Source of the DNA: a virus
Taxonomy: Duplodnaviria > Heunggongvirae > Uroviricota > Caudoviricetes
Length of the DNA: 39,373 nucleotides
Virus record (IMG/VR): IMGVR_UViG_2534681996_000012
Direction: 5' to 3' (one strand)
Of the stretch, positions 5,489 through 34,274 are shown piece by piece (the stretch's first letter is position 1; every line of letters begins with the position of its first letter). Under the pieces are notes generated by a model that was given only the letters and a program-made list of their open reading frames with translations, was not told the DNA's origin and ran no database searches. The translations under genes were made by a program, and so were the position numbers.

Positions 5489-5503
5489 TTACCTTTTAGG
5501 TAA
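5489..5503. promoter_or_regulatory. Operator-like palindrome TTACC-TTTTA-GGTAA in the tail-spike/accessory divergent region
   Basis: Perfect half-sites; 38 nt upstream of the LexA box. Confidence 0.5.
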
Positions 5504-5540: not shown

Positions 5541-5560
5541 TACTGTATAAATATACAGTT
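5541..5560 (+). promoter_or_regulatory. LexA (SOS) box
   Basis: TACTGTATAAATATACAGTT matches CTGT-N8-ACAG consensus with AT-rich centre (18/20 to TACTGTATATATATACAGTA); about 20 nt upstream of the 5581 ATG; degenerate half-box at 5470-5485. Confidence 0.8.
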
Positions 5561-5580: not shown

Positions 5581-5838
5581 ATGCAGCAGTATCACTATCC
5601 ACTGGAAGACGGATTTACCGAAAGGATTCACACGCCGGGAGGCGTCAAGTCACTGGTGGAGGGATCGCACTTGATGAAATTACTCCGGGATCTCGATAAG
5701 GATGGATTTAATGTCGATGGCCCACTTGCCGAACTGACTGCACTGATTAACTACGTCACCAGCTCACAGATGTCTATGCAGGATCTGCAAACACATCTCG
5801 ACTATTGTGCCGAACAATTACGAAAACAAACCAGATAA
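5581..5838 (+). CDS. Small protein sharing a C-terminal domain with the downstream Bro-N antirepressor; antirepressor-like regulator candidate
   Basis: ATG 5581 with GGAG 9 nt upstream (track start 5566 lacks RBS); IHTPGGVKSLVEGSHLMKLL...DLQTHLDYCAEQ aligns with IHSPSGVLGLTENSLLMNLL...DIQTHAEYIND of the 6152-6838 product. Confidence 0.55.
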   Translation: MQQYHYPLEDGFTERIHTPGGVKSLVEGSHLMKLLRDLDKDGFNVDGPLAELTALINYVTSSQMSMQDLQTHLDYCAEQLRKQTR

Positions 5839-5869
5839 GGTTTGCAATTGCCAAGTGGAGTGCTTATAT

Positions 5870-5884
5870 TTACCTTTGCGGTAA
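5870..5884. promoter_or_regulatory. Operator-like palindrome TTACC-TTTGC-GGTAA between the small LexA-controlled gene and the antirepressor
   Basis: Perfect half-sites; followed by hairpins and a weak terminator. Confidence 0.5.
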
Positions 5885-5978
5885 ATTTACATCGCACTCC
5901 TCTTGTGCCATAGTAATCGGGCACTGGCAAAATCCAGTGCCGGGATTGGCGTCCCGAGTTACTACAGAGGCACATATG

Positions 5979-5998
5979 CCGCATAAGCGGTTTTTTTT
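5979..5998 (+). terminator. Weak intrinsic terminator (short stem plus T8)
   Basis: CCGC-ATAA-GCGG followed by eight T; sits between the small LexA-controlled gene and the antirepressor. Confidence 0.45.
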
Positions 5999-6151
5999 AT
6001 GTGTAAAGCGCACCTATTCTATGGTGGGCTGTGTGGGGGCACCGAAAGGTGCGCCGGGTCCTTTGTAGCCGGTTACGCCAACCCTGCACAGTTCACCACC
6101 AACCGATTGGCGTCGGTAGTGGTGATTAACCTAACTACAAAGGTGATCACT

Positions 6152-6838
6152 ATGACTGCTAACGTAACCCCATCTGTTTTTCATTTTGAATCAGAAGCAA
6201 CCATTCGAGCCATTGTTATTGATGGAAATCCTTGGTTTGTTGCCAAAGACGTTATTAAAGCTCTTCAACTGACAAACCCCACTATGTCAATAAAATCTCT
6301 TGATGATGATGAAAGGGCTAAATTTAACTTAGGCCGTCAAGGCGAAACCAATATTATCAACGAGTCAGGCCTCTACACACTGATCCTCCGCTGCCGCGAT
6401 GCAGTAACACCAGGCACTATCCCCTACCGCTTTCGCAAATGGGTTACAGGTGAGGTACTTCCTCAGATCCGCCGCACCGGAAGTTACATTAAAAACTCGC
6501 TCCCGCAGGAAGAACGCATAAAGATGGTTGCCGACCAGGTAGCCAACGCCACGGCGTCAGCAGTGATGCAGGCAATGAAGATAGAGAACAAAACCTACAG
6601 CGCCCCGCTGAAGCCCGGCTACCGCAGCCTGATTCATTCTCCGTCTGGTGTTCTCGGCCTGACGGAGAACTCACTGCTGATGAATCTGCTGAACCAGTTA
6701 CAGGACGACGGGCACGACGTATCGGGCGCGGCGGCGGAGCTGACCACCATGTTCTGTTACATCGTTGGTGTGAGCAAATGCCTGCGTGATATCCAGACCC
6801 ACGCGGAGTACATCAACGACAAGGCAGGGTTCTTCTGA
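6152..6838 (+). CDS. Bro-N domain antirepressor-like protein
   Basis: N-terminal IRAIVIDGNPWFVAKDV...ESGLYTLILRC...FRKWVTGEVLPQIRRTGSY is a Bro-N signature; ATG 6152 with AAGGTGA 5 nt upstream; track extension to 5999 spans a terminator and is rejected. Confidence 0.75.
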   Translation: MTANVTPSVFHFESEATIRAIVIDGNPWFVAKDVIKALQLTNPTMSIKSLDDDERAKFNLGRQGETNIINESGLYTLILRCRDAVTPGTIPYRFRKWVTGEVLPQIRRTGSYIKNSLPQEERIKMVADQVANATASAVMQAMKIENKTYSAPLKPGYRSLIHSPSGVLGLTENSLLMNLLNQLQDDGHDVSGAAAELTTMFCYIVGVSKCLRDIQTHAEYINDKAGFF

Positions 6839-6904: not shown

Positions 6905-6919
6905 TTACCTTAAAGGTAA
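6905..6919. promoter_or_regulatory. Operator-like palindrome TTACC-TTAAA-GGTAA upstream of the toxin/antitoxin-like pair
   Basis: Perfect half-sites, 43 nt upstream of the 6962 ATG. Confidence 0.5.
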
Positions 6920-6961: not shown

Positions 6962-7288
6962 ATGACAAAACTTGGATTCGTGATGAGAGGTCCGGTAAGA
7001 AGCGGAACTCATGCAAAGCGTAGCAAGAGTCGTATTTTTACTGGTAAGGTTGTAGCACGTAAATCAGCTATTGGCTCGTTCAATAGTGAAAATGCGGCAT
7101 TGCGCCATATTTTTATCAGCACAAAGCCAAGAGCATCCGCTGATGTGCATACAATGACTATTCCTATCACAAAGAATATAAAGCGGATAAAAAAGCTCTC
7201 ATCTGCAGAATCAAAAGAGATATCTTTCCGCCAGCTTAACTCATTAGAAACGCATATGAAGGAAGAGGAATTCGATGTTTTTGAGTGA
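6962..7288 (+). CDS. Basic small protein with acidic C-terminal tail; antitoxin candidate
   Basis: GGAG RBS; K/R-rich N-terminal half; C-terminus ...LETHMKEEEFDVFE; stop lies 12 nt after the downstream gene's ATG. Confidence 0.4.
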   Translation: MTKLGFVMRGPVRSGTHAKRSKSRIFTGKVVARKSAIGSFNSENAALRHIFISTKPRASADVHTMTIPITKNIKRIKKLSSAESKEISFRQLNSLETHMKEEEFDVFE

Positions 7289-7787
7289 GTATAGCGGGAA
7301 GGTTATACCTACTGGTGAGTTTAAAACTGATGACTTTCTGATTTCGCTAAAAGATGCTTTTAAACAACACTGGCGTCATGGTCATCATCCTGATCTGGGA
7401 AAAGATACTCTTTTTGAAAGACCAGACGAAGTATTAGGTTTCCATCTCAGAAAGGTTCATGTCAATATTGGTGAATATGCATCATATTCATACTCATGTA
7501 CTGAACAGTGTTGGGATGAGTGGTCATATGGATTGATTGATGAACAAGGAAATTACAGGCCAAAACCAACCAGTAACGCATATCTCATATATGCAGTCAA
7601 TGAAATAAGAGATGCAGCCTTACTAGCTTATTGGGACCCGCCCGCACACACCAAAGCTAACGCAAAAGTTTGGATGGATTCCGTATTGAATTTCACAAAA
7701 TTATTTCATGAACGAACGAATACAGCTCCACTTAGTAGAAATGTTTATCCGTGGGATTATTCGTACAAATCCAAAAAGCCTGCATAG
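7275..7787 (+). CDS. YafO-like toxin candidate (ribosome-dependent mRNA interferase family)
   Basis: Blocks DDFLISLKD, PDLGKDTLFERPD, FHLRKVHVNIG, AYLIYAV and ALLAYWDPPAH resemble the YafO signature as I recall it; GAGGAA RBS; AT-rich. Confidence 0.45.
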   Translation: MFLSEYSGKVIPTGEFKTDDFLISLKDAFKQHWRHGHHPDLGKDTLFERPDEVLGFHLRKVHVNIGEYASYSYSCTEQCWDEWSYGLIDEQGNYRPKPTSNAYLIYAVNEIRDAALLAYWDPPAHTKANAKVWMDSVLNFTKLFHERTNTAPLSRNVYPWDYSYKSKKPA

Positions 7788-24960: not shown

Positions 24961-25037
24961 GTGGCATTAGCTCAGTTGGACAGAGCAACCGCCTTCTAAG
25001 CGGTTGGTCGCAGGTTCGAATCCTGCATGCCACGCCA
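24961..25037 (+). tRNA. tRNA-Arg (anticodon UCU)
   Basis: Cloverleaf folds by hand: acceptor GTGGCAT/ATGCCAC, D-stem GCTC/GAGC, anticodon stem ACCGC/GCGGT with loop CTTCTAA, T-arm GCAGG-TTCGAAT-CCTGC, discriminator G and encoded CCA. Confidence 0.85.
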
Positions 25038-25200
25038 GAATCACACCTGAGGACCGTGATGCCAGAAGTTCCAGGGGCTTGGCGGTGATGGTTTCCCTTG
25101 AAGGACTACCACCGCCCTTTTTACAGCAGGACGCCATTGCGATGACTTCATGCTGTAAACCAGTACAGCCACGGAAGGCGGAACTCATTGCTTCCAGTTC

Positions 25201-25230: not shown

Positions 25231-25259
25231 ATGACCACAAATTACCTTAAAGGTATAAT
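25231..25259 (+). promoter_or_regulatory. Sigma70-like promoter (ATGACC-17-TATAAT) overlapped by operator-like TTACC-TTAAA-GGTAT
   Basis: Perfect -10 TATAAT at 25254-25259; operator variant at 25242-25256. Confidence 0.55.
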
Positions 25260-25284: not shown

Positions 25285-26109
25285 ATGTTCGAATCGTTCA
25301 AAGAGCTGTTTTTATCTACTGCCAATACTGCCGTGCATCGAGCTAAAAACCCTGTGCTTGGTGCTTTTGTTATGTCCTGGTGCGCCTTCAACTGGAAATC
25401 ACTTCTTTATCTATTTTTTAGCAAATCAAATATAATAGATAAAATTTCATACATCTCAGATAACAGCACATGGAAAACTGTTATGTTTTATCCATGCTTA
25501 TCTGTAATTACTATCTGCTGCCTATTACCATGGGTAAACAATATCATTAACGTATGGCAAGCAAAGCCTCTTGATAATAATGACTCAATCGAAAATCACC
25601 GGAAGGCAAGAAAAATACAACGTGAAACACGGCTACAGAGATTGCTGGCTAAAAAAGACATTACTTACGAAAAAGTAAAAACAGGCGCTGAAAAAAACAT
25701 TCAAGACATGAAAGAGGAAATAATTCTTTCAAAAGACAGAATGGGACAACTCACATCTGAATTGAAAGAGAGGGAGACAGAACTGCGCGCAGAACAAGCT
25801 CGTATTTTAGAATTATCTAAGGTTATTGATGAAACAACATCTAAACTAGAAAATCTAGAAAAAGCTCACAAAAATTTAAAAAACGAATATGAGTCCTATA
25901 AGAAAAACATTCCTTTGGCAACAAATAATACAATTGCTAATGGGCTTGTAGGTCTAAAATCATTACAAGACCTTAATGAGTCCGTAAAGAAACTTGGCGT
26001 TACTGGAATTAACAATCCAGAAATCAATACATTATTGAATAATCCTCTAGTAAATATAAATGGTGGTTTAAATTCCACCTATCAAAGAAAATTAAAAACA
26101 CAAAAGTAA
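25285..26109 (+). CDS. AT-rich accessory protein: two N-terminal TM helices plus long C-terminal coiled coil
   Basis: ATG 25285 with AAGGT 7 nt upstream (track start 25231 lies upstream of the predicted promoter); hydrophobic segments VLGAFVMSWCAFNWKSLLYLFF and VMFYPCLSVITICCLLPW; K/E-rich heptad-like C-half; stop 3 nt from the convergent terL stop. Confidence 0.55.
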   Translation: MFESFKELFLSTANTAVHRAKNPVLGAFVMSWCAFNWKSLLYLFFSKSNIIDKISYISDNSTWKTVMFYPCLSVITICCLLPWVNNIINVWQAKPLDNNDSIENHRKARKIQRETRLQRLLAKKDITYEKVKTGAEKNIQDMKEEIILSKDRMGQLTSELKERETELRAEQARILELSKVIDETTSKLENLEKAHKNLKNEYESYKKNIPLATNNTIANGLVGLKSLQDLNESVKKLGVTGINNPEINTLLNNPLVNINGGLNSTYQRKLKTQK

Positions 26110-26112
26110 AAA

Positions 26113-27582
26113 TCATTCAAATGGGTCATAGTCTGTTATAGCCCTGCCCTGCTGCTGCCGTGGGTCATTAGTTTTCTTGGCTACCGGGAAAGCAAACGTC
26201 AGCAGTAGCGCATCGCCTTTACCCGGCGAACGCCCAAGCCGCTCTTTGATATCTTCCTTCGGTTCGATAACGATTTTACCGTCCACACGAACTTTGTACT
26301 CTGCCGCCGACAGGTCATCCGCTGTTTCCTGGTCATCCAGCATCCCGCCGAGCCTCAGCCATGTCTTGCATGAGTTGAACATCTCCCCGCGCTTGTTAAG
26401 CATCTGCGGGTCAGTAGACGCGCCACCGAACGGAACAAGTTGCCATGTACGGCCCCAGCCATCACCGATTGACTTCAGACCGGTTCCGTAACCGAAGTCG
26501 ATGAACACCGCGTCAGCCTGATACTGGTCTTCAAAGTCAGCGATACGCTTCGCCATAATCAGATCGTCGGTGGTCTTGTTACCAGTCCATAGCACCTTAC
26601 TGTGCAGCCCCTGCCGCAGGTATATCACAGCGTCATCAACGCCGGAGTATGCCGGGTCAACGCCGATTATCACCGGAGCATGTGCCACCTGCGCAGCGGT
26701 GACCACCCGTTTCATTGCCTCGTCAGTAAGTCCGGTAGGGATAAACTGCAATTCAGATGCATCCGGGAATATGCCGCGCACACGGATTTTAACGAAGTCG
26801 CTGTCTTCCCCGTAGTCATCAACCCATTTCTGCAACTGCTGTTTGTTGGTGCCTTCCACCGTCCGGCTGTCAATCTGCGCAGTTTTCCAGCGGTGTTTAT
26901 ATTTGCGGAAACATTCGCGGAAACGCCCGGTGTTACGTGTAGGGTTTCCGAACGCCACCCAGATAATCTCAGTGTCTTCGTCCGTTAGCGCCCCCTCAGC
27001 AACTTCCCACACCAGATCCGCAATGTTCGACGCTTCATCGAATACCACGATGATGCGTTTGCGCTCGTTGTGTAGTCCGGCGAATGCCTCAGTGTTGTGC
27101 TCAGACCAGGGGATTGCGTCAGCTCGCCACCGCTTGTCGTGCCCAGGATCATTGCTGTACATCGCGGTAGCGGTACAGGTAAACCAGTCTTTCGTGATAG
27201 CAAGGTTCGACCACTTGATAATTTCCGGCCAGGTCTTCGTTCGTAGCTGGTTGTCGGTGTTGGCGGTCACCACGACCTTACAATCCTCGCAAGTGGACAT
27301 GCCCCAGTTGATCAGCATTGAGATGAATGCGGATTTACCAATACCGTGACCAGAAGCGCGTGCCAGCATAAGCGGCTGATAGCGCGTCTCTGGATTCTGC
27401 AGGTGATCACGTATCTCTCGGAACGCATCAGCCTGCCACTGACGTGGGCCGGTAGCATGTGCCAGTTCAGTCCCCTCTTCCCCCCACGGGAACGCATAGA
27501 GGGCATAGCCAAGCGGATCGTGAGTGAACCCTGCAATATCCTCGATCAACTGCTCTTCAGGAGATAACGCTGTATCTGTCAC
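26113..27582 (-). CDS. Terminase large subunit
   Basis: 489 aa; P-loop-like SGHGIGKS; C-terminal nuclease-like region VIIGVDPAYSGVDD; overlaps small-subunit gene by 4 nt. Confidence 0.9.
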   Translation of the reverse strand: MTDTALSPEEQLIEDIAGFTHDPLGYALYAFPWGEEGTELAHATGPRQWQADAFREIRDHLQNPETRYQPLMLARASGHGIGKSAFISMLINWGMSTCEDCKVVVTANTDNQLRTKTWPEIIKWSNLAITKDWFTCTATAMYSNDPGHDKRWRADAIPWSEHNTEAFAGLHNERKRIIVVFDEASNIADLVWEVAEGALTDEDTEIIWVAFGNPTRNTGRFRECFRKYKHRWKTAQIDSRTVEGTNKQQLQKWVDDYGEDSDFVKIRVRGIFPDASELQFIPTGLTDEAMKRVVTAAQVAHAPVIIGVDPAYSGVDDAVIYLRQGLHSKVLWTGNKTTDDLIMAKRIADFEDQYQADAVFIDFGYGTGLKSIGDGWGRTWQLVPFGGASTDPQMLNKRGEMFNSCKTWLRLGGMLDDQETADDLSAAEYKVRVDGKIVIEPKEDIKERLGRSPGKGDALLLTFAFPVAKKTNDPRQQQGRAITDYDPFE

Positions 27583-33571: not shown

Positions 33572-33634
33572 TCACCCATAAGGTAACAAAAATCAAGGAT
33601 AGTTACCTATGGGGTGCATTTACCTGTTGGGTAA
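33572..33634. promoter_or_regulatory. Immunity-region operator cluster (three TTACC-N5-GGTAA-type sites) with divergent promoters
   Basis: TCACC-CATAA-GGTAA 33572-33586, TTACC-TATGG-GGTGC 33603-33617, TTACC-TGTTG-GGTAA 33620-33634; plus AT-rich inverted repeat TATTTAT-N8-ATAAATA at 33549-33570. Confidence 0.6.
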
Positions 33635-33689: not shown

Positions 33690-34274
33690 ATGAAAAGTAT
33701 CCAGGACGTCCGCAGGCAAAATCTCAACGACTTGATCGACCGTGAATTCAATGGTGTTCAGACGCGGATGGCAGAAAAACTTGGAACTCAGGCAAATCTG
33801 GTAAACCGCTGGGCTCTTGGCAAGAAGGTTATCGGCGACCAGGTTGCGCGAAAAATTGAAGCTGCCGCCAATAAACCCCGTAACTGGCTTGATATCGATC
33901 GCTCGCTTTCTCAGGAAGGTTTTCAGCCTGTCGGCCCAAGCGACATTGGTCAGCTGGCGGCTCACAACCTGGAACGCTGGATGAGCGAAAGCCGCGACCT
34001 TTCAACACAGGGAAAACTTCACCGCGCATCCGGCGTCGCCCAGGTGACAATCAGCCGCCTGTTAAACAATGAGGTCAGCGTTTCCATTTCCACCCTGGAG
34101 AATGTTGCATCCGCATTCGGGCGTCACGGCTATGAATTACTGATTCACCCGCACGACCCTGCGACCATCAACTATGACCGCTCGCGCTACGCATTGTTAC
34201 CCGAAACCGAGAAAGCAAAGATCGAAAGTTACATTGAATTTGTCATCAACCAGAACGAAAAAAACAAACAATAA
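33690..34274 (+). CDS. Prophage repressor, tandem HTH domains, no LexA-like peptidase domain
   Basis: Two XRE-type HTH-like segments (MAEKLGTQANLVNRWALGKK and LHRASGVAQVTISRLLNNE); no Ala-Gly cleavage site or Ser/Lys dyad; followed by terminator and operator-controlled promoter. Confidence 0.65.
   Translation: MKSIQDVRRQNLNDLIDREFNGVQTRMAEKLGTQANLVNRWALGKKVIGDQVARKIEAAANKPRNWLDIDRSLSQEGFQPVGPSDIGQLAAHNLERWMSESRDLSTQGKLHRASGVAQVTISRLLNNEVSVSISTLENVASAFGRHGYELLIHPHDPATINYDRSRYALLPETEKAKIESYIEFVINQNEKNKQ

Follow-up and report, generated by a model that had tools for sequence, protein, structure and literature searches.

Ant, a small antirepressor of Salmonella phage SPC32H, is made upon LexA cleavage, the LexA control of its gene having been described by Kim & Ryu 2013 (as cited in a passage of PMC7380047). 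According to the passages of PMC9638917 and PMC9986798 that cite Kim et al. 2016, the repressor Rep of this phage binds palindromic DNA as a tetramer, Ant binds the C-terminal domain of Rep, the Rep tetramer is split to dimers, and PDB entry 5D50 is the Rep-Ant complex; Ant is itself given as a tetramer in PMC9638917. Another kind of antirepressor locus is represented by immI of phages P1 and P7 (c4, icd, ant) and by isrK-orf45-anrP of prophage Gifsy-1, in which the RNA IsrK activates translation of the downstream antirepressor (PMC4825925). The present analysis concerns a locus where relatives of both systems stand side by side, at positions 5581 to 6838 of a 39,373-nucleotide (nt) stretch from a virus of the Caudoviricetes (IMG/VR record IMGVR_UViG_2534681996_000012), the whole of which is called the window hereafter. 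DNA matches of the region identified the window as a phiV10/epsilon15-like (Uetakevirus) genome. Two genes of the locus encode related Ant domains, one free-standing and one fused to a Bro-N domain, and they appear to be under different controls. The genes and the control site on which the argument turns are given below, with lengths in amino acids (aa) and positions in the window.

5543-5558, no strand: LexA (SOS) box CTGTATAAATATACAG, ending 22 nt before the ATG of the small ant gene
5581-5838, + strand: ant, SPC32H-type antirepressor of 85 aa, a free-standing Ant domain of type A (PDB 5D50_E, phrog_450)
6152-6838, + strand: gene for the predicted Bro-N::Ant antirepressor, 228 aa (Pfam PF02498, PDB 5D50_E)
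33690-34274, + strand: rep, two-domain repressor of 194 aa, presumed target of both Ant domains (PDB 5D50_A)

An earlier note on this DNA had proposed that the small protein reproduces, as a separate polypeptide, the C-terminal domain of the Bro-N protein, to which it would align without gaps. This was borne out by pairwise alignment of the two C-termini: in BLASTP, the 5566/5581-5838 product shared 33 of 78 residues (42%) with the C-terminus of the Bro-N protein, gapless and significant at E = 1e-16. Both sequences also matched the same PDB chain (5D50_E) and the same PHROG families (phrog_450, phrog_15539 and phrog_1760). When each domain was compared by tblastn with all six frames of the whole window, two copies only were detected (5581-5835 and 6578-6835), with cross-hits between them at E = 2e-13 and 4e-18; this search gave no third copy, nothing else falling below E ~1. 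Because the identity is 42% and the homologues form two distinct, separately conserved subfamilies, the two domains are to be regarded as old paralogues and not as a recent partial duplication. A within-phage comparison gave no signal of co-evolution: the two types of domain, A and B, were no more alike when taken from one phage than when taken from different phages. Ratios of nonsynonymous to synonymous substitution rates (dN/dS) placed both domains under purifying selection, with values of 0.03-0.06 for the small ant against phages of other genera and of 0.02-0.23 for the C-domain of the Bro-N protein, synonymous sites being saturated between genera. These ratios indicate that both copies are maintained by selection.

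To judge from its sequence, the small protein is an orthologue of SPC32H Ant. The testable features of that family were all found: homology to 5D50_E, a free-standing size of about 86 aa, a LexA box and a Rep encoded in the same genome; the Bro-N protein departs from the family in size, being a 228-aa fusion. Chain E of 5D50 ('Anti-repressor protein') was the only PDB sequence matched by the small protein (E = 1.3e-46, residues 7-89 on 3-85 of 86), which is about 87% identical to SPC32H Ant over its full length. The resemblance to the SPC32H system (Kim & Ryu 2013; Kim et al. 2016; 5D50, 5D4Z) extends to the size of 85-86 aa, to a Rep of the same family, to the adjoining tailspike gene and to a LexA box equally far from the start codon. 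The start of the gene is ATG 5581, preceded 9 nt upstream by GGAG, so that the coordinates first assigned to it were right, and its relatives count 85-86 aa. Close free-standing homologues numbered 120, mostly of 85-86 aa; most are named hypothetical in databases, and phrog_450 carries the label 'unknown function'. The window phage differs from the SPC32H/65FD type in its Rep, which is only about 42% identical, and from 65FD, the single Salmonella relative compared, in having added a fused Ant paralogue and an RNA switch.

This places the two proteins in an order opposite to that of the earlier note, where the Bro-N protein served as the full-length reference, from which the small one would derive: the small protein is the archetype. 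Its description as a possible mini-antirepressor agrees with the present data, since it corresponds to the known canonical antirepressor of the phage group. No evidence was found for the other role suggested then, that of a competitive modulator. Salmonella phage 65FD carries the small ant and lacks the Bro-N gene, IsrK and C4 altogether, which argues that the small protein works alone.

Within the window, no AT-rich CTGT-N8-ACAG other than the box CTGTATAAATATACAG was present. Six related phages (E. coli, Salmonella, Enterobacter) have the box at -37/-38 relative to the start codon, and ATGT replaces CTGT in two Klebsiella loci. The small ant is thus predicted to be under LexA control, as had been claimed; the Bro-N gene has no LexA box of its own and is preceded by a separate promoter and an IsrK/C4 switch that had been overlooked. 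No convincing sigma-70 promoter for the small ant was seen by eye, and a consensus scan reported none there. The same logic is known from Tum (186), GfoA/GfhA/GftA (Gifsy) and AntC (N15), where a small LexA-repressed protein, encoded outside the immunity region, inactivates an uncleavable repressor (PMC3121763). These proteins are analogues and not members of the family; scans of Pfam, PHROG and NCBIfam, which did not include a direct pairwise comparison with Tum, gave no family shared with Tum or GfoA. The C-terminus of Gifsy-1 AnrP had no significant similarity to a 73-aa open reading frame (ORF) downstream of dinI that was guessed to be GfoA (E = 8.3).

The Bro-N protein consists of a Bro-N domain (aa 18-104, nt 6203-6463; Pfam PF02498, E = 5.2e-20), a helical linker and a type B Ant domain (aa 143-228, nt 6578-6835), of which residues 147-223 aligned on 3-79 of 5D50_E at E = 1.9e-13. 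Its N-terminal part is that of the Bro-N phage antirepressors (PF02498, phrog_130). Its start is most likely ATG 6152, with the Shine-Dalgarno (SD) sequence AAGGTG at 6140-6145, and not the ATG 5999 retained by the ORF finder. Among 20 homologues of 69-89% identity, the C-domain was one of the most conserved parts, with many invariant positions. Orthologues at the same locus are ORF4 of Escherichia phage vB_EcoP_ZX5 (ZX5 hereafter), gp23 of phiV10 and gp20 of Tyrion. Over its whole length the protein shares 82% identity with ZX5 ORF4; the first 70 residues are mosaic (65% identity), and beyond them the two differ at a single position. Overexpression of ORF4 lowered the prophage titre from 10^9 to 10^6 (about 1000-fold) and the repressor mRNA by 75% (PMC9782041). 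The same paper describes only the Bro-N domain, leaving the Ant-like C-domain, the small ant and IsrK/C4 unmentioned; 'SPC32H' and 'LexA' occur 0 times in its text, and the small ant is annotated as hypothetical (PMC9782041). We infer that the Bro-N protein is a second antirepressor, of which the C-terminal 86 residues would be the part engaging Rep.

Structure prediction was not used as evidence either way. The AlphaFold2 (AF2) monomer, built on a 20-sequence alignment, was confident for the Bro-N domain and reached a predicted local distance difference test (pLDDT) score of 35-70 in the Ant-like domain. A Foldseek search of this model against the PDB gave no match at E <= 0.001 and did not recover 5D50, and a weak Ski/Dachshund-like resemblance concerned Bro-N only. 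No NCBIfam model matched the small Ant or the Bro-N protein. In the phiV10 reference (NC_007804, 3340-4019), a frameshift within the Ant-like domain breaks the Bro-N gene into two annotated ORFs, gp23 (194 aa) and gp22 (29 aa); either the sequence is in error, or the second antirepressor has been knocked out naturally in this phage.

Ant domains form a small family, an exhaustive profile search having retrieved 64 relatives from 1.84 billion representative proteins. Its members are free-standing (82-95 aa) or lie C-terminal to Bro-N, AntA (PF08346), Phage_pRha (PF09669) or ORF6N (PF10543). Homologues split into two types: type A (...NYVTSSQMSMQDLQTHLDYCAEQLRKQTR) was found only free-standing, and type B is marked by ...CYIVGVSKCLRDIQTHAEYINDKAGFF. 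Invariant in both were Y4, H17, P19, G21, L25, S29, L35, D41, G42, V45, A50, E51, Y58, T71 and H72, which make up a common core motif (Y, IH.P.GV, S.L, DG..V, AE, Y, TH). The type B contexts that were examined belong to three groups: epsilon15-like prophages with the same tandem layout, epsilon15-like prophages with the gene between methylase and integrase, downstream of a 194-aa Rep, and a P4-like satellite. Bro-N can be seen as an exchangeable N-terminal module, because AntA, pRha and ORF6N also precede type B domains. The Ant fold, for its part, seems to be swapped between proteins as a unit while remaining associated with this Rep family, and this is the main reason for supposing that the C-terminus of the Bro-N protein binds the repressor.

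Individual members of the family displayed further variation. In the epsilon15-like prophages of the second group, the copy between methylase and integrase is an AntA::Ant fusion (L015, 10001-10490) or a free-standing protein of 97 aa (L016, 10001-10294). The satellite copy, of 95 aa, stands at the edge of the P4-like element in Raoultella/Klebsiella-type metagenome contigs (L005/L006, 10001-10288) and looks 5'-truncated, linker-coding sequence continuing upstream of its ATG. The small type A Ants of Klebsiella (L011/L012, 9422-9682) have a central DGHDVSGAAAEL, identical to that of type B, instead of DGFNVDGPLAEL, suggesting either recombination between paralogues or retention of an ancestral segment.

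The 314-nt spacer between the small ant and the Bro-N gene is filled by RNA elements, as follows.

5886-5914, + strand: predicted cassette promoter, with -35 TTTACA (5886-5891), a 17-nt spacing and an extended -10 TGcCATAGT (-10 at 5909-5914)
5908-5960, + strand: c4-a1b1 element within IsrK (RF03163, 44.3 bits, just under the threshold of 46.7)
5921-5997, + strand: IsrK-like small RNA (Rfam RF01394, 74.2 bits for a gathering score of 50)
6017-6103, + strand: C4-type antisense RNA (Rfam RF01695, 79.5 bits for a gathering score of 45)
6107-6113 and 6135-6143, + strand: C4 target boxes a2 (TTGGCGT) and b2 (CTACAAAGG), assigned by complementarity

Both promoter hexamers, TTTACA and CATAGT, were invariant in the six phages compared, which cover four genera, and the predicted start (~5921) is position 1 of the IsrK model. 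Another promoter returned by the scan, TTTGCA...TATATT at 5841-5870, was disfavoured, being not conserved outside E. coli. IsrK ends in an intrinsic terminator (stem 5978-5991 followed by a T run), and the scan predicted no terminator between the stop codon of the small ant and this one. IsrK contains the boxes a1 (5946-5952) and b1 (5962-5970), and the loops of C4 contain b' (6060-6068) and a' (6075-6081). By complementarity, a' pairs with a1 and a2, and b' pairs with b1 and b2; box b2 overlaps the SD sequence AAGGTG of the Bro-N gene, 7 nt before ATG 6152.

Comparison of the six phages gave strong support to these pairings. For a'-a2 together with b'-b2, 90.5% of the cells were paired and 6 pairs had changed on both sides, a covariation score that was reached by none of 500 shuffles, while all slid registers scored far lower. 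The a1-a' pairing was complete (100%), with five of its seven pairs compensatory. The a boxes varied together at all three places (GGCGT/ACGCC, GGTCT/AGACC, GAGAC/GTCTC and TGCAC/GTGCA), and the b boxes varied in concert in two E. coli variants. A switch in which C4 would occlude the ribosome-binding site of the Bro-N gene, with IsrK carrying decoy boxes, is therefore strongly supported as a prediction from covariation, and by analogy with P1 versus P7 the varying boxes would set heteroimmune RNA specificities. IsrK and C4 exceeded the Rfam gathering scores, in the same order, in six related loci, and C4, like IsrK, was present at every locus examined that has the Bro-N gene. As neither RNA occurs in 65FD, the RNAs and the Bro-N gene are best explained as one inserted cassette. 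The tandem ant/Bro-N::Ant layout is kept in phages of E. coli, Klebsiella, Salmonella and Enterobacter, and at least 80% of the tandem cassette was found in 236 of 5426 complete E. coli genomes (~4%).

With immI of P1/P7 and isrK-orf45-anrP of Gifsy-1, this cassette shares the Rfam families, the order a1/b1-C4-a2/b2-antirepressor, a target box over a ribosome-binding site and a box specificity that co-varies between phages. It differs from them in that C4 appears to block the ribosome-binding site of the antirepressor itself, and not that of an upstream icd/orf45 ORF. The form of the upstream ORF is not conserved, being open and in frame in the window and closed in ZX5. Furthermore, the window antirepressor combines Bro-N with an Ant-type C-domain, whereas AnrP of Gifsy-1 is of ORF6N type, and the cassette adjoins a LexA-controlled paralogue and carries the putative palindrome of the phage repressor at its promoter.

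Two observations concern the annotation of this RNA region. An ORF from ATG 5999, just after the IsrK terminator and with no obvious SD sequence, reads through C4 in frame into the Bro-N gene, which accounts for the 279-aa protein called in many database entries (P0200 and others). In ZX5, the stretch matching window positions 5999-6151 holds a separate 37-aa 'ash family' ORF that ends 5 nt before the antirepressor start. ORF 5999-6151 probably results from erroneous annotation across an RNA gene; otherwise it would be the counterpart of orf45/icd. The C4 region (6018-6126) also had matches of ~85% identity in over 100 lambdoid E. coli phages, Stx1/Stx2-converting ones among them, mostly unannotated there or labelled 'hypothetical protein', suggesting that this RNA module is commonly found beside other antirepressor genes.

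The presumed target, the 33690-34274 product, matched 5D50_A ('Repressor') at E = 4e-42 and 5D4Z_A, the C-terminal domain of Rep, at 4e-20. It is 42% identical to the Rep of 65FD, while the small Ants of the E. coli and Salmonella phages share about 87% of their residues. This discordant conservation suggests either that the antirepressor cross-reacts broadly or that rep alleles are often exchanged. Candidate operators were recognized from a palindrome, TTACC-N5-GGTAA, that occurs at 13 sites in the window for 0.59 expected and at 19 sites in 65FD for 0.62 expected. Those of direct concern here are the following.

5489-5503, no strand: palindrome TTACCTTTTAGGTAA, putative operator of Rep, Cro or both, some 90 nt upstream of the first codon of the small ant
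5870-5884, no strand: palindrome TTACCTTTGCGGTAA, putative Rep-type operator, abutting the -35 of the IsrK promoter
6905-6919, no strand: third local palindrome of Rep type, TTACCTTAAAGGTAA, upstream of ORFs 6962-7288 and 7275-7787
33572-33634, no strand: clustered Rep-type palindromes between cro and rep, putative primary operators

In both the window and 65FD, the palindromes are concentrated between cro and rep and immediately downstream of rep, the 65FD counterpart of the intergenic cluster being a triple one at 26105-26166. Of eight related loci, six have the site upstream of the small ant at -88 to -92, and phiV10 and L008 have it with a single mismatch; at the cassette promoter, TTACC..GGTAAATTTACA was invariant in the six phages of four genera. 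The distribution of the motif suggests that it is the operator of Rep, possibly also of Cro, and that Rep represses the cassette. With a Rep palindrome at the promoter and b2 over the ribosome-binding site, the Bro-N gene would thus be held off twice. The remaining palindromes are scattered over the genome (all sites: 5489, 5870, 6905, 24624, 25242, 28175/28193, 31227/31289, 33572/33620 and 34332/34394), often paired 18-62 bp apart. This arrangement suggests a many-operator repressor regime, and the same motif recurs in 65FD although the Rep of that phage is only 42% identical.

Taken together, these data can be explained by two antirepressors that share one effector domain and respond to different controls, an explanation that we consider reasonably probable inclusive of the wiring proposed here. 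In a lysogen, LexA would occupy the box at 5543-5558 until DNA damage cleaves it and Ant is made. By orthology with SPC32H, for which this has been shown, the Ant tetramer would then bind the C-terminal domain of Rep and split the DNA-binding Rep tetramer into inactive dimers. The Rep-Ant complex of SPC32H is reportedly a hetero-octamer. The Bro-N gene would belong to a mobile cassette of the P1-immI / Gifsy-1 isrK-anrP type and would be doubly silent in the lysogen, through Rep at its promoter, as the palindrome suggests, and through C4 at its ribosome-binding site, as is strongly supported by covariation. Upon SOS induction, the small Ant would cause Rep to leave its operators, including that at 5870-5884, and the IsrK promoter could fire. 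The a1/b1 decoy could then titrate C4, allowing Bro-N::Ant to be translated and more Rep to be neutralized, in the manner of a feed-forward lock. Alternatively, the cassette may act as a trigger independent of SOS, or as a second immunity determinant on infection; immI is such a determinant in P1 and P22. A broader proposal, in which the Ant fold is a portable anti-Rep module and its paralogues act in series as a protein-plus-RNA feed-forward latch that would make induction irreversible and could be tripped without SOS, is put forward as a tentative one, and we would not expect it to hold in full.

Several points weigh against this explanation. The feed-forward step is a model. The type B domain is only 42% identical to Ant and its AF2 model is of low confidence, so that its binding to Rep remains a prediction from homology. 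The operators were assigned from the distribution of the palindromes, and Cro could bind the same sites. Ant is conserved at 87% and Rep at only 42% between the E. coli and Salmonella phages. The overexpression assay in ZX5 used a GST-tagged (glutathione S-transferase) protein in a phage that also carries the small ant, and does not separate the effects of the two proteins. No convincing sigma-70 promoter was seen by eye for the small ant. Lastly, the frameshift in the type B domain of phiV10 implies that a temperate phage can be viable without the second antirepressor.

Three other explanations were ranked below that of two antirepressors acting on one Rep. The type B domain may target the Rep of heteroimmune epsilon15-like prophages, or some other repressor, and thus serve, on superinfection or in co-inducing neighbouring prophages, as a weapon of anti-immunity or cross-talk. 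Such a role would fit the maintenance of types A and B as distinct subfamilies across genera, the high variability of Rep (42% identity), which implies several Rep specificities, and the shuffling of type B among N-terminal modules and sites, one of them in a P4-like satellite that would need derepression of its helper; cross-talk by trans-acting antirepressors is, moreover, documented among Gifsy and Fels prophages (PMC3121763). However, ORF4 overexpression lowered the lysogeny of ZX5 itself (PMC9782041), the cassette promoter bears the phage's own operator-type palindrome, an epsilon15-type Rep was present in the same element in every context whose flank reached it, and the core motif is conserved in both types. 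Cross-talk as the main function therefore appears unlikely. The common core could instead be taken as a sign that the small Ant and the C-domain of the Bro-N protein form mixed oligomers, one inhibiting or tuning the other, given that Ant is a tetramer (PMC9638917), that DGHDVSGAAAEL is identical in both types in some lineages, and that the genes are adjacent, with no terminator predicted between the small ant stop and that of IsrK. Mutual modulation of this kind is nevertheless quite improbable: the small Ant functions in phages that have no Bro-N partner, type B occurs at other loci and in other elements with no adjacent type A gene, 42% identity is low for obligate co-assembly, and the two genes are under separate and different controls.

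It can also be argued that recombination between ant and a Bro-N moron left the Bro-N protein with a C-terminus that is now decaying, the protein acting through Bro-N only, for instance by DNA binding or host takeover. The phiV10 frameshift, the shortened domain fragments found elsewhere, such as the apparently 5'-truncated L005 copy, and the low AF2 confidence of the domain would be in keeping with decay. Against it stand the position of the C-domain among the most conserved parts of the protein in the 20 homologues at 69-89% identity, its dN/dS of 0.02-0.23 (with dS saturated between genera), and its recurrence behind four unrelated N-terminal modules, which is expected if the Ant domain is a selected, functional unit. 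We give this explanation very little credence.

Some neighbouring features were also recorded. Downstream of the Bro-N gene, behind the third Rep-type palindrome, lie two overlapping + strand ORFs, 6962-7288 (phrog_5933) and 7275-7787 (phrog_1651, with a sub-threshold match to the YafO toxin, PF13957, at E = 9.5e-4). They may be a moron with a toxin-antitoxin or defence function that moves together with the cassette, and a similar pair was seen at the related loci L008 and L011. Farther away, a tRNA-Arg gene (anticodon TCT) occupies 24961-25037, between the structural and terminase regions, with a CTGT-N8-ACAG match at 25153-25168 and a Rep-type palindrome at 25242 in its vicinity.

The locus involves no new kind of mechanism, each of its components having a characterized relative. 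In the literature searched, no description was found of the paralogy of the two antirepressors, of the wider modularity of the Ant domain, or of a LexA-controlled copy in series with one controlled by RNA and Rep. With respect to annotation, phrog_450 and hundreds of 'hypothetical' proteins of 85-86 aa encoded beside the tailspike gene in epsilon15/phiV10-like prophages can now be assigned to the structurally solved Ant. For a common group of Bro-N 'anti-repressors', whose only studied member has been described by its Bro-N domain alone, a likely repressor-binding role can also be given to the C-terminal third. The cassette of ~4% of complete E. coli genomes probably directs two paralogous antirepressors, one with an SOS/LexA input and the other with an IsrK/C4 input, against a single repressor, which makes the locus a tractable system for studying how prophages combine DNA-damage and non-SOS induction signals. 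If the Ant fold is indeed a portable anti-Rep module, the repressor-binding part would be identified in a whole class of large 'Bro/Ant/Rha' antirepressors.

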